This document shows positions 4,240-49,654 of a stretch of DNA of 49,654 nucleotides, one piece after another (within the stretch, counting starts at the first letter, position 1; every line of letters begins with the position of its first letter). Under the pieces are notes generated by a model. That model made no database searches, was not told where the DNA came from, and worked only from the letters and a program-made list of their open reading frames with translations. The position numbers and the translations under genes were made by a program. Origin of the DNA: a virus; the IMG/VR virus record IMGVR_UViG_3300008807_000159, positions 1-49,654 of that record, one strand, 5' to 3'.

Positions 4240-4512
4240 TTATGGGGAACTCTCCGCCAGCGCGGCGTCGATCATGGCTTGCCAGATGTGCTCAGGTATA
4301 TCTTTTGGATGGTGACATTCTCCATAACCCGCCGTTTGCATCCCCTCGCTCGGCCCCCGGATCGCGGTGAGCACGGCGCGCGCGGCGTCAACATGATCGC
4401 CCCAGTTTTTCGCTTCCCACTCATCCGCGCTGACATAGGGGAATTGCGCCTCTCCGCCGGGAGGGCAGGAGCGACGGGCCAGAGCACGCGCGGCGCGTTC
4501 GAGCGGGGTCAT
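4240..4512 (-). CDS. Hypothetical protein
   Basis: 90-aa ORF whose start overlaps the upstream stop (ATGA type). Confidence 0.55.
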   Translation of the reverse strand: MTPLERAARALARRSCPPGGEAQFPYVSADEWEAKNWGDHVDAARAVLTAIRGPSEGMQTAGYGECHHPKDIPEHIWQAMIDAALAESSP

Positions 4513-4949
4513 GCTGCCTTCTTCCGTGCGATTGCTGCTTGCACCCGATCGTAATGCCTCAGGATGTCGCCAATGCGTTCCGGCCTCAGCCCATATTCCT
4601 TGGCGAGTGCGACGCGCGTTTCGCCAGTGCGAAGGCGAGCAATGATCTCGAGATTACGGCGCTGGCGTTCAGGCTTGTTGCCGAGCCCGGCAAGGCCGTC
4701 TGGCAGCGATGGCACGCCGCGAAGCGAATTGATCCGCTCACGCTCGGCGGGGGCGTATCTGGCTAGATACTCATCGTCCCATGATTTGAGACCGGCATCC
4801 AAAAGAGCGGCGGCAATCTCGTCCGCGGTTTTTCGGCCGCAATTTGGGAATCGCAAAAGCTCCGGTAACCAGCCGGGCCAAGAAGCAATCTCCTCAAGCC
4901 CGCCAGCTTCGTAGATCCGGTTTAATGCTCGGTTTGAAAGGCGGGTCAT
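4509..4949 (-). CDS. DNA-binding regulator: RNAP alpha-CTD-like helix-hairpin-helix plus sigma70 region-4/LuxR-like HTH
   Basis: Start taken at the internal ATG 4949 (MTRLSNRALNRIYEAGG...FPNCGRKTADEIAAALLDAGL). The C-terminus RRNLEIIARLRTGETRVALAKEYGLRPERIGDILR looks like an HTH. The longer ORF to 5069 overlaps the upstream gene. Confidence 0.55.
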   Translation of the reverse strand: MTRLSNRALNRIYEAGGLEEIASWPGWLPELLRFPNCGRKTADEIAAALLDAGLKSWDDEYLARYAPAERERINSLRGVPSLPDGLAGLGNKPERQRRNLEIIARLRTGETRVALAKEYGLRPERIGDILRHYDRVQAAIARKKAA

Positions 4950-5010
4950 GCTGGCACCTGCGTGGTCGCATCGATAATGGCGTGCCAGCAACCGCGGTCG
5001 GACAAGACGG

Positions 5011-5274
5011 TCATTGACGCAATTCCTTAAGCATCCGCTCAAGCTCCTCCACATAAATCTGCATGCCACGCACCTCAGTCACGGCGCCTTCAGGCGACCG
5101 AGTGGCGAAGTTTCCTAGAACCCAGTTCTCATAGACTTTCCAACCATTCGCGTATGCCTTGATCTCGCCCCCATCACTGGTGGCCCTAGTCCCGATTATC
5201 TCCACACCTTTCTGTAAAATTTCTGCCCAGAATTGCGCCGGCACATCAACGTAGTTATCCGTATCATCAGCCAT
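5011..5274 (-). CDS. Hypothetical protein
   Basis: Start taken at ATG 5274 (MADDTDNYV...) with GGAG 8 nt upstream. Locally AT-richer than its neighbours. Confidence 0.5.
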   Translation of the reverse strand: MADDTDNYVDVPAQFWAEILQKGVEIIGTRATSDGGEIKAYANGWKVYENWVLGNFATRSPEGAVTEVRGMQIYVEELERMLKELRQ

Positions 5275-5358
5275 GTCGAACGCTCCATGTTCGGGGTGGT
5301 CAGGGTCGGCGATGTTCCTGCATCGTCGGCCCGAAAGGCTAGCAGAATCCGCCAAAAA

Positions 5359-6192
5359 TCATAGCGAAATCACACTCAACGACCTGCACCCGCAATAAGG
5401 AAGTTGGGCCGGTCGGTCATTTGGCGGGGCGTTAATGGTCTTGCCGTTCACTTTTCCGCCGACCGCTGAAGGGTCGTCCGAATAGACCTTCCCGTCGCGC
5501 GCGATATGCTCCTCACGGCCATGTTTCTTGTGCGACCAGAGCCACTCCCACTCCGACAACCCAGCCTGCCGACGCCGCTCATCCGCCAGCGACGACGTCA
5601 ATTTTCGCAACTGATCGCTCGCACACCGTCGAGCCCGAGCCCGAGACATTCCCGCAACCTCGCGCAACCGCCGCCCAACCTCATCAGCCGGCGTCCGATT
5701 CCTAAGCCCATCGAACACAGCCTGGCTCATCTTCTGCCGCGCCTCATCCGAGACCGAGCGAACCAGCGCGACATTGTTGGCGATGATAGTTTCGAGAGTC
5801 GCGCGCACGTCCGCAGGCCCGAGCATGGTCGAAAGATCGACTTTCGACGCCGACAGCACGGCCGATGTCCATTTCCGCCGATGCCACCGCTCGACGAAAA
5901 GGGTCCAGCGTTCGATGGCGGGTTTCAATGAGAAGAAGATCGCGCCCGATCGGGCCTCTGCCGCAGCAACGTCAGCCTCAAGGTCTGACGGCGCATCAGT
6001 CGTCATCTGGGCGAGCGAACGGGCATATTCCTGGGCAAGCCTGTCGGATGCTTCGACCCACACCTTCACGACCGGCTCATAGGCCGCGCGGTAGAGGTCG
6101 CCTGCATGCATGGCGACTGGCTTGATGTCGCGGATGATGGTGGATTTGCGCAGGCCTTGGCGGCGGGCGAGGGCGGGGAGGGAGAAGCGCAT
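5359..6192 (-). CDS. Head morphogenesis protein (Mu F / SPP1 gp7-like)
   Basis: 277 aa immediately after the portal gene. C-terminal WSHKKHGREEHIARDGKVYS pattern is typical of the MuF family. Confidence 0.7.
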   Translation of the reverse strand: MRFSLPALARRQGLRKSTIIRDIKPVAMHAGDLYRAAYEPVVKVWVEASDRLAQEYARSLAQMTTDAPSDLEADVAAAEARSGAIFFSLKPAIERWTLFVERWHRRKWTSAVLSASKVDLSTMLGPADVRATLETIIANNVALVRSVSDEARQKMSQAVFDGLRNRTPADEVGRRLREVAGMSRARARRCASDQLRKLTSSLADERRRQAGLSEWEWLWSHKKHGREEHIARDGKVYSDDPSAVGGKVNGKTINAPPNDRPAQLPYCGCRSLSVISL

Positions 6193-8114
6193 TAGGCCTC
6201 CTCGATTTTCGACTTCCAGTCCAGATCGAGCGGCTCGAAAATCTCAGGCCCGAAGCGCAACTCGCCCGAGTAGGGCTTGATCTTGTCGAGATCGACGGCG
6301 CCCGCATCATAGGTCAGCGTGACGTGCGGGGTATATTCGTCGTAGTCATGCGAGCCGCCTGCTTGAATCATGTCGTTATGGCGCGAGACCAGCGACCACG
6401 ACGCGAACTGCAGGACGACAGCGCCCTCACCGAAGCGTTCGATCGCGCGCGGACCGCCAGCCTTGACGATCAGTCCGCCGTCAGGTTCGGAGCCCCATGT
6501 CTCGCCCATCTTCATCGGGTCGACGGGCTGGCGTGAATAGAGGACGGTCACATCCATGTCCGACGCTTCGAGCGTCGACGTGAAGCCGTTGGACTTCGCC
6601 CATGCGATGAGCGCCTTTGCCGACGTGGGCTTGAGGTCACGGCGCACATAGAGCGGGCGGGGCGTGGCATCGGCGAAGATGCGGGCGAAGCTGTCGTTGG
6701 CCGCGAGGGGCAGCGGATCGACGTTTTCCTCCTCTTCCTCCTCCGGCATTCCGCCGTAGCGTTCGGCTTCGGGCACCTTGTCGAGCGCCGCGTCGAGGCC
6801 AGGCATCCACCCGTTTTCGACGAGGCCGTTCTGGTATGCCTCGTTGAATGCAACATCGGGGACAGCGCCGGTAAGCTGCACTTTTTCGGCAGCCTCAGTC
6901 CATTTCTTGAAGCGGTCGGTTTCTTCGGCGTCGCTCGGTTCGGAAAGCGGCGCGAACTTCCACCAAATCTCGGGCGGGCGCGAGCCGAGCGCCGAGGGGA
7001 TCAGCGCGGCGTCGATCTTGAGCAGGCATGGACGGGTCTCAAGCTTCTGGCCCTTCATGACCATCTTGTCCCAATTGTCCTGATCGCCCTCGCCGGTTGC
7101 GTTCAGACCCTTGGACGCCGTACCCCAGAAGCGCGTGACCGGGATGTCGGACGCCGCCGACATGGCCTCGGCATAGGCGAGGATCATGCCGGGGATCCCG
7201 GTCCAGTCAACCTGATGGCGGTCGATGGACTCCGCGCCCTTCCCATCGGCATCGCCGTTATCATATACCTTGCCGTTGAAGACCGACGAGCCTTGTTGCA
7301 TCAGGGCGAGGCGCTTCATCAGGTCCGCTTCACCATTCGGCTTGCCGAGCATTTCGAACAGGCGCGAGATGCCGACGTCGACGTTGAGCGCGTCCTTGAT
7401 CATCGCGTTGAACGTCGCCAGCGCCTCGTCGAGATTCTGCGCCGGCTCGATCAGGGTCGGCACTCGGCCCCTGCCCCAGAAGCGGCTTTCCCAGTCGCCC
7501 TTCCAGATCGACGGCAGAGGACGGCCGCGGAAGCATATGACGCGCGAAGGATGGAGGCGGGTTTGTGAGCCGGAGCCGCTCATCTCCCAATATTCGGGCT
7601 CGCCAAACAGGTTGGTCGCCATGTTGTCGTTCCAGTTCTGGCCCGACAGGTGATAGCGCGAGACGACGTTGATGGCGGTAAGGCCGCCCTTGCCGGTGAC
7701 TTTGAGCGGCTGCGAAGGATCGGTGCCCGAGATCAGGATGAGAGCGCCGCCTCCTAGGCCCCGAAGCACCTCGGCCTGCTGAACCTTGGCTTGCAGGTCG
7801 TGCCGCTCTTCTTCGGCCTCGATCAGCTCGATCTGCTCTTTCGTCGCCTGCCAGTCGCGCCACTCGCGCACACGGTCTTCGGCGGGGATGTCGATCGCCT
7901 TCGCCAGTGACCAAGACGCCTCATAGGCCTCCTCGATCTGCGAGGGGGCCATGATCGATGCGATATACTGGCGGCCGAGGCGGGCATCGCCGCGCATTCC
8001 GAGACCGGTGATGACGTTGGCGAGGCCGTCCCGTGCGCGCATCGGCACGACGTTGCCGCCAGCATCCATCACGAAGCCGGGCTTCGGCCGAGGGTTTACG
8101 AGGCGTCCGGACAT
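6192..8114 (-). CDS. Portal protein (DUF1073-type) fused to a C-terminal 2H-phosphoesterase (Acb1/LigT-like) domain
   Basis: 640 aa. The N-terminal ~470 aa are portal-like and follow TerL. The last ~170 aa carry HVTL (His codon 6324-6326) about 75 aa after a DVTV box (Asp codon 6552-6554). Confidence 0.75.
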   Translation of the reverse strand: MSGRLVNPRPKPGFVMDAGGNVVPMRARDGLANVITGLGMRGDARLGRQYIASIMAPSQIEEAYEASWSLAKAIDIPAEDRVREWRDWQATKEQIELIEAEEERHDLQAKVQQAEVLRGLGGGALILISGTDPSQPLKVTGKGGLTAINVVSRYHLSGQNWNDNMATNLFGEPEYWEMSGSGSQTRLHPSRVICFRGRPLPSIWKGDWESRFWGRGRVPTLIEPAQNLDEALATFNAMIKDALNVDVGISRLFEMLGKPNGEADLMKRLALMQQGSSVFNGKVYDNGDADGKGAESIDRHQVDWTGIPGMILAYAEAMSAASDIPVTRFWGTASKGLNATGEGDQDNWDKMVMKGQKLETRPCLLKIDAALIPSALGSRPPEIWWKFAPLSEPSDAEETDRFKKWTEAAEKVQLTGAVPDVAFNEAYQNGLVENGWMPGLDAALDKVPEAERYGGMPEEEEEENVDPLPLAANDSFARIFADATPRPLYVRRDLKPTSAKALIAWAKSNGFTSTLEASDMDVTVLYSRQPVDPMKMGETWGSEPDGGLIVKAGGPRAIERFGEGAVVLQFASWSLVSRHNDMIQAGGSHDYDEYTPHVTLTYDAGAVDLDKIKPYSGELRFGPEIFEPLDLDWKSKIEEA

Positions 8115-8146: not shown

Positions 8147-8160
8147 TTTACCGCCGTCAG
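8147..8160 (-). promoter_or_regulatory. Late motif copy (CTGACGGCGGTAAA)
   Basis: Overlaps the TerL stop codon. Its first base is 46 nt upstream of the portal ATG (8114). A CATAC box lies 34-38 nt downstream. No SD. Confidence 0.55.
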
Positions 8161-9389
8161 AGGGCGGACGACATGGCAGATTGGTAGTCGTAACGGTCAA
8201 GCTTGATCAGCGGTGAGATGCTGTAGCGGATTGAATCTATCCAGTGGTTGTTGGCGTCGACAAGAACGGCGAGGATATCGCCAGTCAGTCGGTCGACCTT
8301 GTAGCTGTAGAGGCGCATTTCGGTAATCGTGTTGGTGCAGCGCGGATGCACGACAATCTCGCGGAAGGCGCGCAGGAATCGGATGCCGTCGTCGACGCTG
8401 CCCTGCCACTTGTCGGCGCCGATCGCCTTAGGCAGCCCCGATCGCGTCAGGATGCTGATCGAGCCAGGCGAGGCGCTATCCCACCTGCTGACGTGATCGG
8501 CATAGCCCGGAATCTCCTCGGTCACCCTTTGAGCGATGTCGTCAAGCTCGATGCCACGCCCGCCGGCCTCATGGCTGACATAGAGCGTGTCACCGTGAAT
8601 ATAGGTTCGGACAGCCGCAGCGGGATCCTGCGCATATCCGAAGTCACCGCCCTGGTACGGCCCGTCCCAATAATCGGCGGGTTCGAACTCGGCAACGCGC
8701 CATTTGCCGGAGAATACTTGGGCCGCCGAATTGACCAGATAGGCGCCGTCCCAGACATGGGCATAGGTGGCCGGGTCGAGGCGCGCCTGCTCGCGTCGGC
8801 GAAGCTTGTCGAGGCCGGCGGGGAAGAACGGGTTGTCCGACCAGTTCATTTCTACGGTGATGGCGTTGGTCGGCGGATTTTTCCGAAACCGCATGTCCAC
8901 AGGGCTGCCGTCGAGGCGCGGATTCCATAGCGCCCAAAGCTCGGACTTGGGCTGACGAAAGACGGTGGCCTCGAGCGCGAGCCACGACGCCTCGGGAACG
9001 TCCTCGGCTTCTTCGACGATGGTCAGGTCGATCTTGGCGAGCGACTTAATCGTGTTGACGCTATGCCTGAGCCCGCGAAACAGAAACTCGGTCCCGTTGC
9101 GTCCACGCAGATAGTCGACACCGACGTCGTAATGATCTTCGAGCCACGGGTAGGAGGCGATGGCTGCCTTCAATTCGGCGTGGAACGACTCCTTGATGCT
9201 GGCCTGAAACTCGCGGGTGCAGAGGACGCGGATCGGTTCGGCATAGCCCCAGATGGCGGCCATGAGCGCGGCCGAAAAGGATTTACCCGACCCGCGCCCC
9301 CCGTGCATGTTCCGGTATTGCACCGCGCCCCGTTCGAGCGCGAACATTGGGACGAGCTTGGGGGGGAGTTGGATGCGGGCTTCGGTCAC
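8157..9389 (-). CDS. terL: Terminase large subunit (PBSX-like)
   Basis: 410 aa. Walker A GGRGSGKS and Walker B-like LTIVEEAED. Follows the small subunit with an overlapping start. Confidence 0.9.
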   Translation of the reverse strand: MTEARIQLPPKLVPMFALERGAVQYRNMHGGRGSGKSFSAALMAAIWGYAEPIRVLCTREFQASIKESFHAELKAAIASYPWLEDHYDVGVDYLRGRNGTEFLFRGLRHSVNTIKSLAKIDLTIVEEAEDVPEASWLALEATVFRQPKSELWALWNPRLDGSPVDMRFRKNPPTNAITVEMNWSDNPFFPAGLDKLRRREQARLDPATYAHVWDGAYLVNSAAQVFSGKWRVAEFEPADYWDGPYQGGDFGYAQDPAAAVRTYIHGDTLYVSHEAGGRGIELDDIAQRVTEEIPGYADHVSRWDSASPGSISILTRSGLPKAIGADKWQGSVDDGIRFLRAFREIVVHPRCTNTITEMRLYSYKVDRLTGDILAVLVDANNHWIDSIRYSISPLIKLDRYDYQSAMSSAL

Positions 9390-9775
9390 TTCGCCGCTTC
9401 GATGACGATCTTGGTCACTTTCGGCGTCATGCTGCCGTCGGAAGAACGATGGTCCTGTTTGTCGATAATCAGGCCCAGCACCTTGGCCTTACCCATTGTG
9501 GCAGACACCATGGCTGCGGGCGCCTCCATTTCTTTTGCGAAGGCCCGGTCTTCATCAAGCTGGCGAGCGATATCCGCCGCCGTGACGACCGCCTTTTCGG
9601 CGGCGGCATTCTTCAGTTCGGCCACCCGAGCAGCGACCTTACCATTTGATACCAGCCGGGACGCATGGCTTTCATTAGGTTTGAAACCCGCCGCCCTGTA
9701 AGCATCGAGCTGCGATTTTCCCTTCGCGAGTTCCTGCGCGAACTTCTCATGGCGCGAGTTTTTGAGGACGCTCAC
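9386..9775 (-). CDS. terS: Terminase small subunit
   Basis: 129 aa. N-terminal NSRHEKFAQELAKGKSQLDAYRAAGF pattern is typical of P27-type small terminases. Confidence 0.75.
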   Translation of the reverse strand: MSVLKNSRHEKFAQELAKGKSQLDAYRAAGFKPNESHASRLVSNGKVAARVAELKNAAAEKAVVTAADIARQLDEDRAFAKEMEAPAAMVSATMGKAKVLGLIIDKQDHRSSDGSMTPKVTKIVIEAAK

Positions 9776-10158
9776 CGTTCCACCCTCGCCATAGCCGCCC
9801 GGCGAAACTGATCTCGACCAGCAGGGCTAAGCCTGTTCCAACGATCCGCCATCGATGCCAGCGTGATTTCATCCGCCAATTCCGGCGTCAGGGAGAACCA
9901 TTCCCCATGCGTCCGCAGATGAGCCCAGCGGCGATGCCATTCAGTCTCGACTGATGAGCCCCCCGCAACCGACCCGATGAATTCCAGCGAGACGGGCGAC
10001 ATGAGCGCAACCTCGGCAAATCGTCGCCCCGGTTGAAAGCTGGTGCCGATCTTGATCATTCCCACTGACGGTGCGGAAAGGAAATACACGCGGTCGCCGA
10101 TCTCGCGCGCCACGTCCTGATGAACTTCGGTCGCGTTCATGAATTCGACGCTGATCAC
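9772..10158 (-). CDS. T5orf172 / GIY-YIG-like domain protein
   Basis: 128 aa with IKIGTS...RRFAE...EWHRRWAHLRTHGEWF, the T5orf172 signature. Confidence 0.6.
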   Translation of the reverse strand: MISVEFMNATEVHQDVAREIGDRVYFLSAPSVGMIKIGTSFQPGRRFAEVALMSPVSLEFIGSVAGGSSVETEWHRRWAHLRTHGEWFSLTPELADEITLASMADRWNRLSPAGRDQFRRAAMARVER

Positions 10159-11981: not shown

Positions 11982-13157
11982 TCACCTCTCCCATATCCAT
12001 CGCGGTTTTTTATTCGCCGACCCGACCCGAGATTTAACGCTGCGAAAGCCGAGTTCTTTCAGGACGTCAGCAACGCGCATCTCCTTTTCCTTGTCGCGGC
12101 GTTCATATTCTATGCCGAGCAATTGAAGGGCGTCATTGCCAGTGATCCGGGCGATCCCGCCTAGCTTCTCTTCGAGGACGAAAATCCAAGGGTCAGTTTG
12201 ATGGCGATCGGCCTGGGCCTCCTCTGCGGCACCCACTTCATCGCCTTCCAGCCACCAGCGCTCCTCAGATAGGTATCGATGATATGCCTCCGCCCAAAGC
12301 TGATCTCGGCGCTGCCTCAGGCCTTCGATATCCACCTTCGTGACGGTGATCGGCCAATAACGCCGGTTGCCGGTATTATCCGTCAAATAGCCGATGCCGC
12401 CGGGATTGATCGTTCCCCAAAATACGATCCTGCGGGGAAGATCCGACAGCGTCCGTCCATAGGGCAATTGGACGCGATCGGTTCGCATCGAGATCAGGCC
12501 CTTAACGGCGCCCGCATGGGACTTTGCGACTGCGACGAATTCAGCCAGTTCGACGCACCACGCACCCATCATCTGCACGGCGAGCTGACGATGATTGTCG
12601 AACCCTGAAACAAACTCGTAGGCGTACTGAGGCGTGAACAGCTCTTGTATGGCCGACGATTTTCGAATGCCTTGCGGGCCTTCCAGCACGACCATCGTAT
12701 CCACTTGGCAACCCGGATTCATGACACGTGCCACCGCGGCGATGAGCGCCTTCGTGCCTACCAGCGATGTAAACTCATCCCTCGGTGCGCCGAGAAGTTC
12801 CTGCATCCATCGATGAAGCCGCTTTGTCCCGTCCCATTGAAGGGACGTCAGATAATCGACGATCGGGTTATAGCTGTTCTCATACGCGACGCGGATGACG
12901 CCGGGGCGGACATCCTTCTCGGGCGGCTGAAATCCTTCGCGCTCTATAATGAGGCGAATGTCGATGAAGTCGTGATCTTCGAGTTTGCGCCCTCGCCATT
13001 CAGGACACTGCGTCTGCTCATTGAACCGGATGTTTTTTCCGAGTTCAGGCAGGTGTCGGAGGTGCACCATCAGGTTTGTAAGGTTCTTCTTCACCCCACG
13101 CTCACCCATATCCAGGTGATGACGCCAAGCGTTCAACTCTACGACGTTGCTCATCAT
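11982..13157 (-). CDS. VapE/VirE-family replication protein (P-loop primase-helicase-like)
   Basis: Start taken at ATG 13157 (MMSNVVELN...), an ATGA overlap with the upstream stop. Walker A LEGPQGIRKSS. The ORF-track N-terminal extension to 13412 overlaps the upstream gene. Confidence 0.75.
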   Translation of the reverse strand: MMSNVVELNAWRHHLDMGERGVKKNLTNLMVHLRHLPELGKNIRFNEQTQCPEWRGRKLEDHDFIDIRLIIEREGFQPPEKDVRPGVIRVAYENSYNPIVDYLTSLQWDGTKRLHRWMQELLGAPRDEFTSLVGTKALIAAVARVMNPGCQVDTMVVLEGPQGIRKSSAIQELFTPQYAYEFVSGFDNHRQLAVQMMGAWCVELAEFVAVAKSHAGAVKGLISMRTDRVQLPYGRTLSDLPRRIVFWGTINPGGIGYLTDNTGNRRYWPITVTKVDIEGLRQRRDQLWAEAYHRYLSEERWWLEGDEVGAAEEAQADRHQTDPWIFVLEEKLGGIARITGNDALQLLGIEYERRDKEKEMRVADVLKELGFRSVKSRVGSANKKPRWIWER

Positions 13158-13921
13158 GCCGCGCTCCTGAAGTTCATTGGGGCGTGCACGCGGGTGTTCG
13201 GCTTGCGCAGGACGCGATTGAGGGATTTGACGTCGATTCCTTCGCCGGCGGTGATGAAGTCCGAGGCGGGCCAATCGATCTTGTCGAGTTTGCCGAGAGC
13301 GAGCGCCGAGGGCGGCAGGCCGATCCATGTCGAGGGGATGTTGGCGATGCGCCGGGCATTTTGCGCGGCTCGTACGAATTCGAGCCTGTGCCGTGCGAAA
13401 TCGCGCGCCCATGCCTTCGCGTCGGCGTGGACGGTGAAACGCTGCGTATTCGCGGGCTCGATAAGCTGGGGCTGCTTATCCTTGTATATCTGGACTGCGC
13501 CGGTTTTCGGGTCGATCAGGACGAGCGTGTCAATCGGCGTAAGGTCGATCGCCATCGGGGAGGGCGCGCGAACCGCGACACCAAGTTTCCAGCCGTCGAG
13601 ATTGACGGGCGTCATTCCGCCGAGTGCGAGGCTGGGCGTTGTTGCCGGATTGAGATCGAGCGCGCGGCACTTCCATGCGTGCGCGGACTCACGGGAATGG
13701 CGTTCGCGGCGCTGACTGGTCCGGAACAGCTTGTCGGCCGTGTCGGGCTGGTGGTCGTCGAGAATATCGTGGATTGTGGCGATGACGATTTGCAGGCGGC
13801 GGACATCCGCCATCGACTTCATGGGCGTAGCGAGCGCACGTTCGATAGGCTCGAAAGCCTGCCGCGTCGCGAGTTCCGCCGCATAGGGGCTGGCCATGAT
13901 GATGTCGCGTCGGCGGGTCAC
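13154..13921 (-). CDS. Hypothetical replication-module protein
   Basis: 255-aa ORF. Its GTG start overlaps the VRR-NUC stop (GTGA). Confidence 0.55.
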   Translation of the reverse strand: MTRRRDIIMASPYAAELATRQAFEPIERALATPMKSMADVRRLQIVIATIHDILDDHQPDTADKLFRTSQRRERHSRESAHAWKCRALDLNPATTPSLALGGMTPVNLDGWKLGVAVRAPSPMAIDLTPIDTLVLIDPKTGAVQIYKDKQPQLIEPANTQRFTVHADAKAWARDFARHRLEFVRAAQNARRIANIPSTWIGLPPSALALGKLDKIDWPASDFITAGEGIDVKSLNRVLRKPNTRVHAPMNFRSAA

Positions 13922-14241
13922 AGCAAGCCCTCCGTTGTGAGGCGGTGACGAACGTCGTCGACGGAGTAAGCCGGGAACGCGATGCCACCTGCACGGATGA
14001 CGGCCTGCGCGAATTTCTGCTGGTCCGGCTTGAGCCTATCCTTCCCGATCTTGGCGTCGATCGCGACGAAGCGCGTCTTTATGCAAGCCGCGATGTCGAG
14101 GCGGCCCTTTTTGCCGACCTTGACCGGGCGACGGTTCTTGTCGAACAGCAGGCCGGGCGTCTCGACATGGATCGACATGCCGCCGATCTCCGAGATGAAG
14201 ATGCGGATTTCCTTCACGAGATCGTCGTGGGCGGCGCTCAT
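13918..14241 (-). CDS. VRR-NUC domain nuclease
   Basis: 107 aa. The segment ...RLDIAACIKTRFVAIDAKIGKDRLKPDQQKF... fits the PD-(D/E)xK VRR-NUC pattern. Confidence 0.7.
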   Translation of the reverse strand: MSAAHDDLVKEIRIFISEIGGMSIHVETPGLLFDKNRRPVKVGKKGRLDIAACIKTRFVAIDAKIGKDRLKPDQQKFAQAVIRAGGIAFPAYSVDDVRHRLTTEGLL

Positions 14242-15353
14242 TGGATCACCGTCACTTTCTCGGCAGCCCGGGTGACGGCGGTGTAGAGCCAGTTTGAACG
14301 GGCATCGCGAAATGCGCCGCTCTCATCGAACACGATGACGTGATCCCACTGGCTGCCCTGCGATTTGTGACAGGTGATGGCCCAGCCGAAGGTGAATTCG
14401 TCGTACTTCTGGCGTTCGCGCCATTCGATTTTATGCTCGGCGCCAACGAAGAATTCCTCGGCGACTTCTACGGTCAGCGGGTCGCGGTCTTCGTCCAGCG
14501 ACGTGACCTCGATAGACAGGCATCCGAACTTGTCGGCAACGCTGTCCGCCATCCACATGCCGCCGTTAAAAATGCTCTTGGCGCGCTTGTTTTTGAGGCA
14601 GATCAGCTTGTCGCCGACGGTCGGGTGGAAATCCTCGGCATCACCAGCCAATTCCTTCAGCGCGCGAATGCGGCGGTTATAGGCGACGCGCGTCCGATTC
14701 ATGCCGCATAGCAACTGGTCGGATGACAGGACAAGTTCGCGCAAATTGTCGTGCCCGATGTCGACGCGCGCGGTGACGAGGCTGTCACCATATGCGCCAG
14801 CCTGAAGGCGATTGCCCTCGCGGATGTCCATGCTCATGCGGATGATCGGGTTTTCTGCCGCCTGGCGATGGACCTCGGTCAGCATGACGTCAGGCGCCGA
14901 ATTGATGAAGAATCCCTCATCCTTGACGGGCGGCAACTGCGCCGGATCGCCGAGAACGAGAATGCGCTTGCCAAAGCTCAGAAGGTCTTTGGCCAGTTCG
15001 CCGCCGACCATCGAAACTTCGTCGACGATAAGGAGGGCGGCATCGCAAAGATCACTCTCGTCGTTTAGCGTGAAGGTCACCTCGCCGGTGCGCTCGTTGA
15101 CCTCGACCTTGTAAATCAGCGAATGGATCGTCGATGCATCGTCGCAGCCCTTTTTCCGAAGGACGAGCGCGGCCTTGCCGGTGAATGTGGCATAGAGGAC
15201 CGAGCCTTTGACGGTTTCGGCGAGTTCCTTGGCGAGCGTCGTCTTTCCCGTCCCGGCATATCCGAACAGCCGGAACACCTGCTTGCCGCGTGGATCGGCC
15301 AGCCATGCCTTGACGTCCGCGATCGCGCGTTCCTGTTGCGGTGACCAGCTCAT
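14238..15353 (-). CDS. SF1 DNA helicase (RecD/Dda/PIF1-like)
   Basis: 371 aa. Walker A GYAGTGKTT and Walker B LLIVDEVSM. C-terminal ITCHKSQGSQWD motif. Confidence 0.85.
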   Translation of the reverse strand: MSWSPQQERAIADVKAWLADPRGKQVFRLFGYAGTGKTTLAKELAETVKGSVLYATFTGKAALVLRKKGCDDASTIHSLIYKVEVNERTGEVTFTLNDESDLCDAALLIVDEVSMVGGELAKDLLSFGKRILVLGDPAQLPPVKDEGFFINSAPDVMLTEVHRQAAENPIIRMSMDIREGNRLQAGAYGDSLVTARVDIGHDNLRELVLSSDQLLCGMNRTRVAYNRRIRALKELAGDAEDFHPTVGDKLICLKNKRAKSIFNGGMWMADSVADKFGCLSIEVTSLDEDRDPLTVEVAEEFFVGAEHKIEWRERQKYDEFTFGWAITCHKSQGSQWDHVIVFDESGAFRDARSNWLYTAVTRAAEKVTVIQ

Positions 15354-16957
15354 GCGGCCATCTCCATGCCGATCTCAGCCAGCACCGACCTTGTCATCAC
15401 CTCAGGATGTTCGCGCTCGATCCACTGGAACACAGACGGCTTCTCGGCGCGGATCCACATCAGTGCCGCAACAGCGCCCTTCGACGCCGCGGGCATCCCT
15501 TCCTTGCGATAGGCTTTCACCTGCATCGGGGTCAGGCCGATCGAGTCCGCGAATTGCTGGGCCTCGATACGGCCCTGAATTACGTGTCGGGCCCAAGCCT
15601 CGGGATGTTTCTGACCCCGAGAGCGTGCGACACGAATAAGGTCTTCGAGCGTTTCCGCCTGTCCCTGCTCGCGCTTCCGGTCCTGCATCTCAGCCCGGCG
15701 CAGCGCCTCGACGTCGATCTCTTTCAGCTCGCCATCGACCTGCTCGATCTCGCGAACCGGCGCGACATAGACGTGACCGCAATTCGGGCACTCTGGCACC
15801 GGACGGAACACGGCAAAGCATTCGGGACAGGTGCGGATCGCGACTTCGGATTTCTCACCGGCCTTCCGCTTTTCGCGATCTTCCAAAGACCATGTGCGAT
15901 CGTCATCTGGAAAGCCATGCCCCTGTCCGTTCAGCTCGCGCGGGAGGCTGTTGCCGGCATGGTCGAGAATGATCGCATAATCTTTGCCCGGCGCGGGACG
16001 AAGCGCGCGACCGACCTGTTGGAGATAGAGCGATAGGGATTTGGTCGGCCGCAGCAGAATGACGGCCTCGATCGCGGGGACATCGAAGCCCTCGCCGAAC
16101 AGCTCGCAGTTCGACAGGACGAGCGTTTCGCCTGTGATGAAACGCTGGATCGCGGCATCGCGGGTCGTCGTGTCCATACTGCCGTCGACATGCTCGGCGG
16201 CGATACCGGCCAATTGGAACTGCTGGACGATATGACGCGAATGCTCAATATTGACGGCAAAAGCTACGGCGCGCTTGCCGGGGCAAAGCTTCTGATAATG
16301 CTTCACGGCATCGCCGACGATCGACGGTTTGTCCATTACGTCGGCCAGTTCATCGCGCTTCAGGTCGCCATGCTGGGTGCCAACCGATGACAGGTCAGGA
16401 ACGTGCGGCGCGAACAGGCGATATTTCGACAGAGCGCCGGCTTCGATTAATTCCTTGACCGTTGGGCCGTTGATCATGTGCCCGAACCAGCGACCGAGCC
16501 CGACGCCATCGAGGCGCCAAGGTGTTGCAGTCAGGCCGATGATTTTCGCGTCGGGGAAAGCGTCGAAAATCTGTTGCCACTGCCCCGCGCCGAGGTGGTG
16601 GCATTCGTCGAAGATGATCAGATCGGGTGCGGGGAGTTTGTCGAGCCGGCGCGCTACGGTCTGGATCGAGCCAATTTGCACCAGCTTGTGCGGGTCGGTC
16701 GAATGTCCGCCCTGGATGATGCCGTGAACGATGCCCATGCTCGCGAAGGTGCGGCTCGTCTGGCCGATAAGTTCGCGGCGATGGGTCAGCCACCAGCAGA
16801 CTTTGCCCTTCTGCGCGGCGCCGTGGATCATGTAGGAGCCCGAGACTGTCTTGCCGCCGCCCGTTGCGAGCTGCAGAAGGATCGCGCGGATACGGTCACG
16901 GAAGCCGTCGCGGGCGCCGTCGAGCAGGGTTTGCTGATAGGGGCGGAGATGGATCAC
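15350..16957 (-). CDS. SF2 DEAD/DEAH-box helicase with C-terminal zinc ribbon
   Basis: GTG start at 16957 overlaps the upstream stop (GTGA). Motifs LATGGGKT, IIFDECHH and CPECFAVFRPVPECPNCGH. Confidence 0.85.
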   Translation of the reverse strand: MIHLRPYQQTLLDGARDGFRDRIRAILLQLATGGGKTVSGSYMIHGAAQKGKVCWWLTHRRELIGQTSRTFASMGIVHGIIQGGHSTDPHKLVQIGSIQTVARRLDKLPAPDLIIFDECHHLGAGQWQQIFDAFPDAKIIGLTATPWRLDGVGLGRWFGHMINGPTVKELIEAGALSKYRLFAPHVPDLSSVGTQHGDLKRDELADVMDKPSIVGDAVKHYQKLCPGKRAVAFAVNIEHSRHIVQQFQLAGIAAEHVDGSMDTTTRDAAIQRFITGETLVLSNCELFGEGFDVPAIEAVILLRPTKSLSLYLQQVGRALRPAPGKDYAIILDHAGNSLPRELNGQGHGFPDDDRTWSLEDREKRKAGEKSEVAIRTCPECFAVFRPVPECPNCGHVYVAPVREIEQVDGELKEIDVEALRRAEMQDRKREQGQAETLEDLIRVARSRGQKHPEAWARHVIQGRIEAQQFADSIGLTPMQVKAYRKEGMPAASKGAVAALMWIRAEKPSVFQWIEREHPEVMTRSVLAEIGMEMAA

Positions 16958-17136
16958 AACCCAAAGGCCCCCGCCAACCGCCGTGTATGCTCGACGGAAA
17001 GATTGTATTGGCGCGCGACCTGCTCGGCAGGCTGACCCGATCGCACGCGGCGGCGGATGTCGGCATTGCGCGAACAGTCGGCGTTCCAGCGTTCGTAGCG
17101 CTGCGAGGTCCGGGCGAAGAGGTCGAGGCGGTTCAT
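16954..17136 (-). CDS. Small HTH protein
   Basis: 60 aa. ADIRRRVRSGQPAEQVARQYNLSVEHTRRL resembles a resolvase/sigma-type HTH. Confidence 0.5.
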   Translation of the reverse strand: MNRLDLFARTSQRYERWNADCSRNADIRRRVRSGQPAEQVARQYNLSVEHTRRLAGAFGL

Positions 17137-17876
17137 GCGGCCGCTCCTTCAAGGAACAAATCACCTTGCCGCTGAGCGTCCTCGATGCGCTGGCAGGCGA
17201 TGTCGAAAAAACGGGCGTCCTGTTCGATACCGATGAACCGGCGCGCCAAAGCTGTGGCTGCTACTCCGGTCGTCCCGCTGCCCATGAATGGGTCTAGGAT
17301 GATCTGTTCGGGCTGCGTAAAATCCCCGATGATTTCGCTCATCAGGCGCCGCGGCTTCTCCGTGGGGTGCTCGCCGTGGCGTTCTGGATTGTTGACGCAG
17401 TGCGTGTAAACGCCTCGCTTTCCGCTGGCATTCCAGTTCGCATGGCCGCTACCGGCCCACGCGCAAACGAACATTTCGGCACCGGACGCCGGGCCTTGAC
17501 CGTTAAACTGCGGCGTCGAATCCGGTTTCACCCAGACGCAGGCGCGCTTGTATTTCAGCGCACTCTCGTTGATCTCGTCAGCCCAGCGGCCAACGCCCTC
17601 TGGCGTGCAAAAAGCGATGAACCAACCTTGGCTCTTTGCGCCCATGTCAACGACCTGCCTGCGGATCGCGTCGATGGGAGCGAAATTCAAGGGGCGTCCG
17701 AGTCTGGTCGACGCGCCCTTGAGGTTTCCCTTGGGCACTGAACCGATCGCCGCCTGTGTGATCGCCTCATACGGCGGGTCGGTAATCAGATGGGCGACAG
17801 GCCCGAGCGTCGGCACGATTTCGAGCGCGTCACCCTGATAGAGCGTAGCGCGGCCTATGGTGACGGGCTGGCTCAT
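17133..17876 (-). CDS. DNA methyltransferase, N6-adenine/N4-cytosine type (beta class)
   Basis: 247 aa. DPPY motif (ITDPPYE) lies N-terminal to the AdoMet motif ILDPFMGSGTT. Confidence 0.85.
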   Translation of the reverse strand: MSQPVTIGRATLYQGDALEIVPTLGPVAHLITDPPYEAITQAAIGSVPKGNLKGASTRLGRPLNFAPIDAIRRQVVDMGAKSQGWFIAFCTPEGVGRWADEINESALKYKRACVWVKPDSTPQFNGQGPASGAEMFVCAWAGSGHANWNASGKRGVYTHCVNNPERHGEHPTEKPRRLMSEIIGDFTQPEQIILDPFMGSGTTGVAATALARRFIGIEQDARFFDIACQRIEDAQRQGDLFLEGAAA

Positions 17877-27181: not shown

Positions 27182-27369
27182 CGGCACCCGCGCGCATCAC
27201 CCAGGCCGACATCGATCGCGCCATGAAGAGCTGCAAGAATGCAGGCTATCTCGGTGCGCGCATTTCACTCGATCTCGCCAAGCAGCGCATTGACATATAT
27301 GTCGGTGAAGCCGTTGAATCTCCGCCCCCGGTGAAGGAAGATGACGGCGGAGGCGACGACTATGGATAG
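27178..27369 (+). CDS. Small protein immediately upstream of the integrase (excisionase candidate by position only)
   Basis: 63 aa, overlaps the int start. No recognisable Xis/AlpA HTH. Confidence 0.4.
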   Translation: MTAPARITQADIDRAMKSCKNAGYLGARISLDLAKQRIDIYVGEAVESPPPVKEDDGGGDDYG

Positions 27370-28432
27370 AGACTGGCCACCCAAGCACGTAACGCCGGTC
27401 AAGGATCGGCATGGCAAAAAGCGCTATCGGTATCGCCGAACCGGCGTGAAGAGCTGCTACATCAACCACGCGCCGCAATCGCCCGAGTTTTGGTCAGAAT
27501 ATGACCATCTCGAACAGCTCGGCGCGTTGCCGGATGCTGAAGGTGTGGTTCGCGCCTTCATCCCCCGCAGCATGGATGATCTCGCCTCCAAGGTGAAGCG
27601 CACGACGTCGTGGAAGCGCATGAAGCCGCAGGGCCAGCGCACCAAGGCCAGCATCATCGAACGACTGCTCGACAAGAAGAATAAAGGCGGCCGCCGCCTC
27701 GGGGAGCGTCCCGTAACCGCTGTCACCGTCGCCATGCTCGACGGGATCCTCGGCAAGATGATGGACACCCCCGGTGCGGCCGACAACTTCCGCAAGGAGA
27801 TGAAGCGGCTGTTCGGCTACGCGGTGAAGCTCGGATGGCGCTCAGACAATCCGGCGTCGATGACCGATCCCATTCCCTCGGGCGCGGGCTGGCATACTTG
27901 GACCGATGACGAAATCCAGAAATATCGCGACCATCACGCGCTTGGGACGATGGCGCGCATGACGTTGGAACTGGCCCTCAATACGGCGGCGCGGGCGTGC
28001 AACCTCAACGACATCGAGCGGACACACATTATCCGCGGCAAACTTCACGTCGCCCATGCAAAGGAGAACGACACGACGATCGTTGCCCTACTCCCAGAGA
28101 CAAAGGCTGCCATCGAAGCATTGCCTGTCGCACCGATACGCTTCCTGATTACCACGGCATTCGGCAAGCCGTTCTCGGACAAGGGCATCAGCAACAAGAT
28201 GCGGCAGTGGTGCGATGAGGCTGGGCTACCGCAGTGCTCGCTTCATGGACTTCGCAAGGCGACCAGCCGGCAGCTAGCCGAGAGCGGCGCGACCGATGCG
28301 CAGGGCCGGGCAGTCACTGGGCACAAGAAAGATGCGACCTTCGCCTACTATGCGAAGATGGCGGATCGCGAGAAGCTGGCCGATCAGGCGCTCACCAATT
28401 TGACCCGAGAAAGGGACACAGATGCAGGTTGA
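27362..28432 (+). CDS. int: Tyrosine integrase
   Basis: Start at ATG 27362. Catalytic pattern R (LNTAARACN), HGLRK, TGHK and FAYYAK (Tyr). Confidence 0.9.
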   Translation: MDRDWPPKHVTPVKDRHGKKRYRYRRTGVKSCYINHAPQSPEFWSEYDHLEQLGALPDAEGVVRAFIPRSMDDLASKVKRTTSWKRMKPQGQRTKASIIERLLDKKNKGGRRLGERPVTAVTVAMLDGILGKMMDTPGAADNFRKEMKRLFGYAVKLGWRSDNPASMTDPIPSGAGWHTWTDDEIQKYRDHHALGTMARMTLELALNTAARACNLNDIERTHIIRGKLHVAHAKENDTTIVALLPETKAAIEALPVAPIRFLITTAFGKPFSDKGISNKMRQWCDEAGLPQCSLHGLRKATSRQLAESGATDAQGRAVTGHKKDATFAYYAKMADREKLADQALTNLTRERDTDAG

Positions 28433-48082: not shown

Positions 48083-49654
48083 GGCAGGCTCATCCCGTAC
48101 TTCGCGTTGAAATACGCATGGGCCGATGCGAGCTGTCCGGCGCTGAGCGGGTTGCACATGACAGCTTCGGCAAACAGGCCCTTGGTTTCCGCCGTGCCGC
48201 CGTTCGTCGCGAACATGATCGCGGACACCGCCTGCCCGCCGAAGCCAGTATAAGGACCGGCGCCGCTGTTCCCTTGCAACACCCCGTCGATATACAAGTA
48301 CATGCGGTCATTATCGACCGCCCTGATCCGCACGAGATGCGGGGTGGCAGCCGTGGGGGCCGTCGCGCTCAAGCCGACAACCGTTCCCACGCCGACGGCG
48401 TTCATGCGGTACAAGCCCGGCGCTGCGGCAGCATTGTTCCCGACAAAAATGCGCGGATCGCCGTCGGCATAGTCGGCGAGCGCGAACAGATAGGTGGTGC
48501 TTGCATCCCATCCGGTGCCGCCGTCATGATATCCGAGCCACAGAAAGTCGAAGCTGTCGGGGTAAGCCACTCCGCCATTATTGAACTGGGCCGACGTGTC
48601 GCCCCACAGCTTCATCGTCCCGTCGAACTTCGCGGTCTTTCGGCCGTTGACTAGATAGGATGCATTGCCGCGATCGGGTTCGTTGTTGCCGCCCCATGAC
48701 CACAGGTCATGCGTACCGGCTTTGTCGCGGAGGCGCTGGAGCTTATGTTCGTTCTGACTTGCAGACCGATCCGTGGCGTCCCACCAGCCAAGCTGCGCCG
48801 ACGGGTTGAACGGCGTCGCCCCGGTGACCGAAATGTTCCAACCATAGGACGTGTCACCCATGGTGAAGGTGAAGGCGGATGTCCCGCTGGCCGGGGCATT
48901 GGCGACAAGCTGCATCGTGTCGCCGTTCGCAAAGACCGTGGGCGCCGACGTCGCCGAGCCGCCGTTCTTCTTGACCTGCAAACCTGCGCCGGGGGTCAGC
49001 GTCTGTGTTTCGGTGGACGCCATGCCGGCGACAGTGAAGACCGAGCTGGTCAGGCCCGTTGCGCTCGGCGTCTGGCCCTCAAGGTCTACCAGCTTGAAAA
49101 AGACGCTGTTGTAATGCCCCAGCGTCCAGTTGATCGCGGCGTTCACAACGGGCTGGGTAAAGCGAAGCGTGCCGCCCCACGTCACATGCAGCGCGTCCGC
49201 GTTATAATAGTTCGTGTCGTTCGCCGCCGCTTCGGTATCGAGGCCGGGAACAGCAAAAAGATCGATGATCTCGTCGTATAGGATGCCCTTCTGCGCGCGG
49301 ATGCCAGTGGCGACGTCGGCAGCCCACGTGTTGAACCCGGCATACGCGCTTCGGCCTCCCGTCATTGCGGCGGTGCCCATCGCGGCAGGGGTACACACGA
49401 TGATCTTCGTGTTCGGCAAGGCGGCCTTGATCGGCGCGATGGCGGCCCAGAACGCCGTCAGGGCATTCGCGGCAACGGGATAGGTCGGATAATCGTTCGT
49501 GAACAGGTGAACGACCACGACGCCGGGAGCGGCCGAGATGATCGACGCCCGCTGGCCTGATATCCAAGTCGCGATCGTGCTGCCACCAACACCGACCGTA
49601 GAAGGATTATACTCCGGAAATCCCGCGACATAGTAGACGCTGTAATTGCTCGTC
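48079..49654 (-). CDS. SGNH/GDSL esterase fused to a LamG/concanavalin-like lectin domain (3-prime part; the 5-prime part is at 236-1)
   Basis: With the wrapped N-terminus the protein is about 570 aa. SGNH blocks: ISGHSW, GVGGST, FTNDY, DALH. C-terminal ...MYLYIDGVLQGNSG... jelly-roll pattern. Confidence 0.75.
   Translation of the reverse strand, partial: TSNYSVYYVAGFPEYNPSTVGVGGSTIATWISGQRASIISAAPGVVVVHLFTNDYPTYPVAANALTAFWAAIAPIKAALPNTKIIVCTPAAMGTAAMTGGRSAYAGFNTWAADVATGIRAQKGILYDEIIDLFAVPGLDTEAAANDTNYYNADALHVTWGGTLRFTQPVVNAAINWTLGHYNSVFFKLVDLEGQTPSATGLTSSVFTVAGMASTETQTLTPGAGLQVKKNGGSATSAPTVFANGDTMQLVANAPASGTSAFTFTMGDTSYGWNISVTGATPFNPSAQLGWWDATDRSASQNEHKLQRLRDKAGTHDLWSWGGNNEPDRGNASYLVNGRKTAKFDGTMKLWGDTSAQFNNGGVAYPDSFDFLWLGYHDGGTGWDASTTYLFALADYADGDPRIFVGNNAAAAPGLYRMNAVGVGTVVGLSATAPTAATPHLVRIRAVDNDRMYLYIDGVLQGNSGAGPYTGFGGQAVSAIMFATNGGTAETKGLFAEAVMCNPLSAGQLASAHAYFNAKYGMSLP
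49556..49654. repeat. Terminal overlap, identical to 1-99
   Basis: Exact identity read directly. Confidence 0.95.

Follow-up and report, generated by a model that had tools for sequence, protein, structure and literature searches.

The viral record IMGVR_UViG_3300008807_000159 was analysed over its full length of 49,654 nucleotides (hereafter the window), with attention to a portal gene whose product ends in an Acb1-type 2H phosphodiesterase domain. The gene lies on the minus strand at 6192..8114 and is listed as an open reading frame (ORF) of 640 amino acids (aa) with Pfam matches to Phage_portal_3 and Acb1. The portal domain occupies aa 59-411 (6882..7940, minus strand) and is recognized by PF06381 (Phage_portal_3/DUF1073; E=4.1e-82, 276 bits). 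It is followed by C-terminal portal helices and an acidic low-complexity linker, read from the sequence at aa 412-486 (6657..6881, minus strand), which includes MPEEEEEENVDP. The Acb1-type domain itself spans aa 487-635 (6210..6656, minus strand). In the window copy the first of the two catalytic histidines is replaced by aspartate (H521D), and this allele occurs in the window alone among the homologues surveyed.

The identity of the C-terminal domain is supported by several methods. Pfam PF23474 (Acb1) matches aa 487-635 with 142.4 bits against a gathering cut-off of 27 (E=1.1e-41) and covers profile positions 2-143 of 144, a sequence match far beyond chance. Among the PHROG families, the 'portal protein' profile phrog_146 spans aa 25-621 and thus already takes in the C-terminal domain, and the C-terminal 150 aa are matched by phrog_755, whose legacy label is 'RNA ligase'. 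TIGR01555 (HI1409 family, a hypothetical equivalog) gives a partial match on the portal domain at 123.2 bits, under the curated NCBIfam cut-off of 196.25. An AlphaFold2 (AF2) model of the domain built with 29 homologues has a mean predicted local distance difference test score (pLDDT) of 87.5 and a predicted template modelling score (pTM) of 0.80, with pLDDT falling to ~60 over the 20 residues with which the modelled fragment begins, on the linker side. When this model was compared with the Protein Data Bank (PDB) by Foldseek, Acb1 (7t26/7t27) ranked first (E=1e-9, target-normalised TM score 0.75), followed by the 2H phosphodiesterase of Burkholderia phage BCSR5 (9q2y) and then by E. coli LigT and other 2H enzymes; the predicted structure is that of a 2H fold. 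The initial annotation had assigned the last ~170 aa of the portal ORF to a 2H domain of this type, and Pfam, phmmer and AF2/Foldseek all bear that assignment out. A primary label of LigT or RNA repair was considered and set aside, as PF13563 reaches only E=0.18, below its cut-off, and Acb1 ranks first in sequence as well as in fold comparisons.

The first 2H motif of the domain reads D521-V-T523 (GAT GTG ACC, 6546..6554, minus strand) in place of H-x-T, and the second, H597-V-T599 (6318..6326, minus strand), is intact. Asp521 is encoded by GAT at 6552-6554 within SDMDVTVLYS and His597 by CAC at 6324-6326 within TPHVTLTYD, 76 residues apart, exactly the readings and positions given by the initial annotation. 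A phmmer search of the PDB sequences with the C-terminal 180 aa returned two matches. The closer is the Pam3 portal gp3 (8hds, E=3e-29), whose deposited sequence carries a canonical Acb1 domain at residues ~458-619, and the more distant, at E=1.3e-8, is the Acb1 protein from Erwinia phage FBB1 (7t26/7t27). Each of the two alignments sets D521 opposite the first catalytic histidine ('elHVTiaYS' in 8hds, 'klHTTivYS' in 7t26) and H597 opposite the second, which confirms the earlier description of the second motif as canonical. A different, intact HxT at the first motif is ruled out, since the two PDB alignments and the family profile all place D521 on the catalytic histidine; the profile alignment proposed in the initial annotation thus revealed neither an alternative HxT nor a domain of some other fold. 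Across columns conserved in at least 85% of homologues, the window domain matches the consensus everywhere except at H521 and at N498S, a column that is Asn in 87% of homologues. Y489 aligns with the base-stacking Y12 of FBB1 Acb1. Judged from these columns, the rest of the Acb1 domain is free of further decay.

The frequency of the aspartate allele was assessed in homology surveys of 136 and then 280 sequences, in which the retrieved homologues were aligned to the domain profile and 277 were readable at the column in question. The initial annotation had suggested such a comparison of His and Asp at this site. Histidine is present in 273/277, asparagine in 1, arginine in 2 and aspartate in 1, the last being the window contig, so that Asp is found in 0/276 of the other homologues. 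At nucleotide level the first-motif codon is CAC or CAT in 37/37 related loci drawn from Logan, IMG/VR and metagenomes. The second catalytic histidine is replaced in two sequences, once by Asn and once by Arg. All exceptions at the catalytic histidines are isolated sequences, and each replacing residue can be reached from a His codon by a single nucleotide change. Five homologues other than the window protein (P0095, P0148, P0194, P0214 and P0013, ~2% of the surveyed sequences) have each lost one catalytic histidine to Asn or Arg; four of them are full-length and portal-sized, and P0013 is 224 aa. Scans with degenerate codons for DMDVT[VI]LYS gave 0 matches in the viral contig collection and 6 in the genome contig collection, 0 of which match the Acb1 profile; 2/6 read DMDVTVLYS and lie in an unrelated protein. 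In the sequences sampled, Asp521 is a singleton allele and no clade conserves Asp.

The closest relative of the window protein is a sister that retains histidine. Clustering at 90% identity places one other member with the window protein, P0301, which is found on six Logan contigs, is identical at 632/641 positions and reads SDMHVTVLYS with the codon CAC. The aspartate must therefore have arisen within ~1% protein divergence. Comparison with the sister phage locus (L001, 10001-11926) shows that nearly all differences in the portal gene fall in codons 408-528. Codons 1-407 differ at 2 synonymous sites and 0 amino acids, with a synonymous divergence (dS) of 0.007, whereas dS reaches 0.57 in codons 408-458, and the C-terminal helices and linker lie inside this highly divergent patch. 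The jump in dS points to a recombination breakpoint near 6893, which places the D521 codon at the edge of an imported patch (6530..6893, minus strand, delimited by the codon comparison with L001). The C-terminal crown, the linker and the start of the Acb1 domain thus appear to have been exchanged as one module. Two positions separate the window's GAT from the CAC of the sister; the nearest relative of the patch, L025 (80% identity), has CAT, one step from GAT.

The fusion of portal and Acb1 is not new: it was published in 2017, is common and is annotated by Pfam and NCBI. Portal–2H and MuF–2H fusions were described computationally, among the polyvalent proteins, by Iyer, Burroughs, Anand, de Souza and Aravind (2017; PMC5512222), who predicted that such 2H domains degrade nucleotides from nucleotide-activated defence systems. 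Most of the best 120 matches listed in a search with the full protein combine PF06381 and PF23474, and several of the NCBI records among them are titled 'anti-CBASS protein Acb1 family protein / phage portal protein'. An exhaustive search of cluster representatives with the domain retrieved 2,063 clusters (50% identity, E≤1e-3). The fusion predominates in this subfamily: a portal domain lies N-terminal to Acb1 in 99/150 of the representatives nearest to the query, and 27/99 of these have further C-terminal extensions. At least 80% of the fusion is covered by 36 cultured-phage GenBank records, among them phages of Synechococcus, phiPSA1-like phages of Pseudomonas and RHEph04-like phages of Rhizobium. 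Portals of close relatives, 480-510 aa long and 62-69% identical, have no Acb1 domain, which indicates that the domain is dispensable for portal function. In Synechococcus phage Yong-M3-232 (OM868076.1, 182-2141; P0004) a 'portal protein' is annotated next to a 183-aa 'hypothetical protein' ORF that carries Acb1, and the tblastn match falls in two pieces, so the module exists both split and fused. Full-text literature searches for experimental work on portal-fused Acb1 turned up the 2017 computational description alone.

Acb1 enzymes cut 3'3'-cGAMP (cyclic GMP-AMP), cA3 (cyclic triadenylate) and related cyclic oligonucleotides 3' of adenosine. In canonical portal–Acb1 proteins, a DUF1073/Phage_portal_3 portal carries the 2H phosphodiesterase on its C-terminus by way of the acidic linker, and the HxT/HxT tetrad would cleave the cyclic di- and trinucleotide signals of CBASS (the antiphage signaling system based on cyclic oligonucleotides)-type defences by acid-base catalysis that needs no metal and passes through a 2',3'-cyclic phosphate intermediate. 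With the identity and fold of the domain, the alignment of D521 with the catalytic histidine and the singleton state of Asp beside a 99%-identical His-bearing sister established, the window protein is probably an ordinary member of this class that has undergone a recent, lineage-specific point mutation, H521D, most likely losing or severely reducing cleavage with portal function unaffected. The rest of the domain would have been left untouched by the change, and the portal role would have been kept. Hobbs et al. (2022) identified H44/T46/H113/T115 as the catalytic tetrad of Acb1 and used both H44A/H113A and single H44A Acb1 as 'catalytically inactive' enzymes; by analogy with the H44A mutant, H521D probably inactivates the enzyme. 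The initial annotation had offered altered chemistry, a binding-only domain or decay as meanings of the substitution; decay, in the form of a recent loss of function, is the only one that agrees with the sequence comparisons, and the other two find no support in conservation.

Several points weigh against this interpretation. Aspartate is not alanine, so some residual activity is conceivable, and a carboxylate can serve as the general base in some RNases. Relaxed constraint was sought by comparison with the sister, in which the Acb1 domain has a dS of 0.05 and a ratio of nonsynonymous to synonymous divergence (dN/dS) of 0.25, a value that comes from only ~8 changes and cannot separate a maintained domain from a relaxed one. 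Furthermore, the immediate ancestor allele was not found among the related sequences, and GAT lies two changes from the sister's CAC and within the recombinant patch.

H521D might owe its origin to drift, to escape from a guard system or to a consensus error. Panoptes guard systems restrict Acb1-bearing phages (PMC13577387), and an active broad-spectrum Acb1 would trigger a guard of this kind, which senses depletion of a decoy cyclic nucleotide; H521D would then be an adaptive change that switches the enzyme off and spares the portal. Phages that escape type II Panoptes do so by single-nucleotide changes within acb1, and in the natural relative Bas43 this gene is disrupted (PMC13577387). The sporadic losses of a single histidine, to Asn or Arg, in five other family members would also fit such selection. 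However, deviant residues at the two catalytic-His columns (6/554 cells) are not in significant excess over those at 17 other near-invariant columns (31/4604; Fisher p=0.28), and truncation would be an equally available route given that related portals without the domain exist. In addition, deletion of acb1 from T4 has no effect on type I Panoptes (PMC12657218). Selection for guard escape is an unlikely explanation, if the best placed of those set against a simple recent loss of activity.

Quite improbable is an artefact, in which the phage population would in truth have histidine and the aspartate codon would stem from a minority variant or from an error of assembly or consensus calling. The allele is present on one contig only: exact look-ups of the window product, in both its 625-aa and its 640-aa versions, recorded it on no other contig. 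A single nucleotide change would also be enough to give GAT if the ancestral codon was CAT, as in L025. On a CAC background such as that of the sister, the two-position difference argues mildly against a single base-calling error. The surrounding ORF is clean and otherwise free of anomalies, the two contig ends join by a 99-nucleotide overlap, and consensus errors are rare relative to real strain-level variation, of which the sporadic His-loss alleles in other members are examples.

Two further explanations are a binding-only, sponge-like domain and an altered but active chemistry. Because Asp occurs in the window only and His occurs in 273/277 homologues and in the sister, neither a dedicated sponge nor a conserved alternative chemistry is supported. 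As a sponge, the pocket would bind cyclic oligonucleotides, and the signal would be sequestered without cleavage by the numerous copies of the portal produced in late infection. The near-invariant noncatalytic residues are all kept, including the tyrosine that aligns with Y12 of FBB1 Acb1, and the fold prediction is a confident one; a very recent mutation would equally leave the pocket intact. No clade conserves Asp, so that selection for a sponge state is not apparent, and binding would be disfavoured by a carboxylate beside the scissile phosphate. When the portal was scanned with Pfam and PHROG, the matches were to portal, head-protein, 2H/RNA-ligase and unnamed families, none of them described as a sponge of the kind of Acb2, Tad1/2 or Acb4, and a binding-only role is very doubtful. 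No better placed is an active enzyme with an Asp/His dyad, in which the carboxylate would act as general base and the pH optimum or specificity might be shifted: Glu/His dyads occur in RNase T1 and barnase, in other RNase folds the same 2'-OH transesterification is carried out by a carboxylate paired with a His, and T523 and the second HxT are intact, yet the 276 other 2H sequences surveyed all lack Asp at the site, Asp is shorter than His and would not preserve the geometry, and Acb1 with the single H44A change is described as inactive.

Recent loss of cleavage by an otherwise ordinary portal–Acb1 protein thus remains the preferred reading, and its importance is small, given that portal–Acb1 fusions are common, that they were interpreted as counter-defence in 2017 and that the aspartate is a one-off. 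The D521 contig and its 99%-identical His sister nevertheless form a natural allele pair for asking whether wild phages switch Acb1 off, as laboratory Panoptes escapers do. If guard escape was selected, the pair would document, outside the laboratory, a trade-off between anti-defence and avoidance of guard systems in the form of a natural on/off pair.

A question that applies to the whole class is where and when a portal-tethered Acb1 acts, and full-text literature searches found no study that tested it. From general portal topology, the Acb1 domain would be expected on that side of the portal which faces the capsid interior. The initial annotation had proposed that a virion-borne copy would be delivered with or near the DNA. 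Packaging with the tether kept, cleavage followed by ejection, and activity only as newly made late protein are three conceivable fates of the domain. The structural matches listed for the window domain model do not include 8hds, though it is the closest PDB relative by sequence, and the paper on the Pam3 structure makes no mention of an Acb1 domain; together these suggest that the Acb1 domain of Pam3 is flexible or unmodelled in the virion map. The question of site and timing is approachable in cultured relatives with portal–Acb1, which include Pam3, phiPSA1 and Rhizobium RHEph phages.

The window is a circularly closed assembly in which the first and last 99 bases (1-99 and 49556-49654) are identical, a 99-nucleotide terminal direct repeat, and is presumably a complete phage genome of ~49.56 kb. 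Its GC content is 61.3% and no tRNA genes were found in it. As expected of a phage portal, the gene is placed between the large terminase and a MuF-like head protein. The large terminase gene (8157..9389, minus strand; Pfam Terminase_3 and Terminase_3C) lies immediately upstream, and the gene for the Mu F-like minor head protein (5359..6192, minus strand; Pfam Phage_Mu_F) lies immediately downstream, its start overlapping the portal stop. The head module is Pam3/E217-like and comprises small terminase, large terminase, portal–Acb1, MuF, DUF2213, cement protein and major capsid protein. The tail genes include a tape measure protein. An ORF of 128 aa (9772-10158, minus strand), which contains a MUG113/T5orf172 domain and weakly matches a homing endonuclease in PHROG, adjoins the small terminase gene on its upstream side. 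Genes for a tyrosine integrase, a VapE-like protein, a superfamily 1 (SF1) helicase (AAA_30/UvrD_C_2), a ResIII/Helicase_C helicase and an N6/N4 DNA methylase are found at 11982-17876 (minus strand) and 27341-28432 (plus strand), and the presence of the integrase gene indicates that the phage is temperate. Sphingomonas, Sphingobium and Novosphingobium genomes carry full-length portal–Acb1 homologues as prophage genes, which suggests that the host is a sphingomonad.

The head modules of the window and the sister phage are 94-96% identical except between the MuF and DUF2213 genes, where non-homologous cassettes are found (window 4241-5383, L001:12735-14447). The window cassette contains three small ORFs of 114, 186 and 90 aa, one of which has a weak late-activator-like match, while that of L001 contains ORFs of 83 aa and 370 aa and an HTH_17 ORF. 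The position may be a moron site or a hot spot for accessory genes.

Among characterized systems, E. coli LigT and the other 2H proteins of the 2',5'-RNA ligase type share the fold class and the HxT/S logic with the window domain (Foldseek E ~1e-5), but their sequence match to the window is marginal and their substrates belong to another class. Acb1 (T4 gp57B and its Erwinia phage FBB1 counterpart; PF23474; 7T26/7T27) is closer, being of the same Pfam family and 2H fold and the top Foldseek match. The second HxT and the first-motif threonine are common to both, and the window domain probably also keeps the near-invariant residues of the pocket, at ~25% identity between the window domain and FBB1 Acb1. 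Unlike stand-alone Acb1, the window domain is joined to a portal's C-terminus and has Asp in place of the first catalytic His; as part of a head gene it is also probably expressed late. The fusions described by Iyer et al. in 2017 have the same 2H–portal architecture, set in a terminase-portal-MuF head module, and differ in that their domains are canonical with two histidines whereas the window copy is H521D. Further counterparts are the portals of Pam3 (gp3, 8HDS), Synechococcus phages, Pseudomonas phage phiPSA1 and Rhizobium RHEph04-like phages, which are full-length portal plus Acb1 homologues at 33-48% identity. The loci and proteins that were read at the first motif for this comparison, a set separate from the 36 cultured-phage records, have histidine there. 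The likeness to Pam3 and E217 extends beyond the portal, as the window shares with them the cement protein, the major capsid protein and DUF2213.

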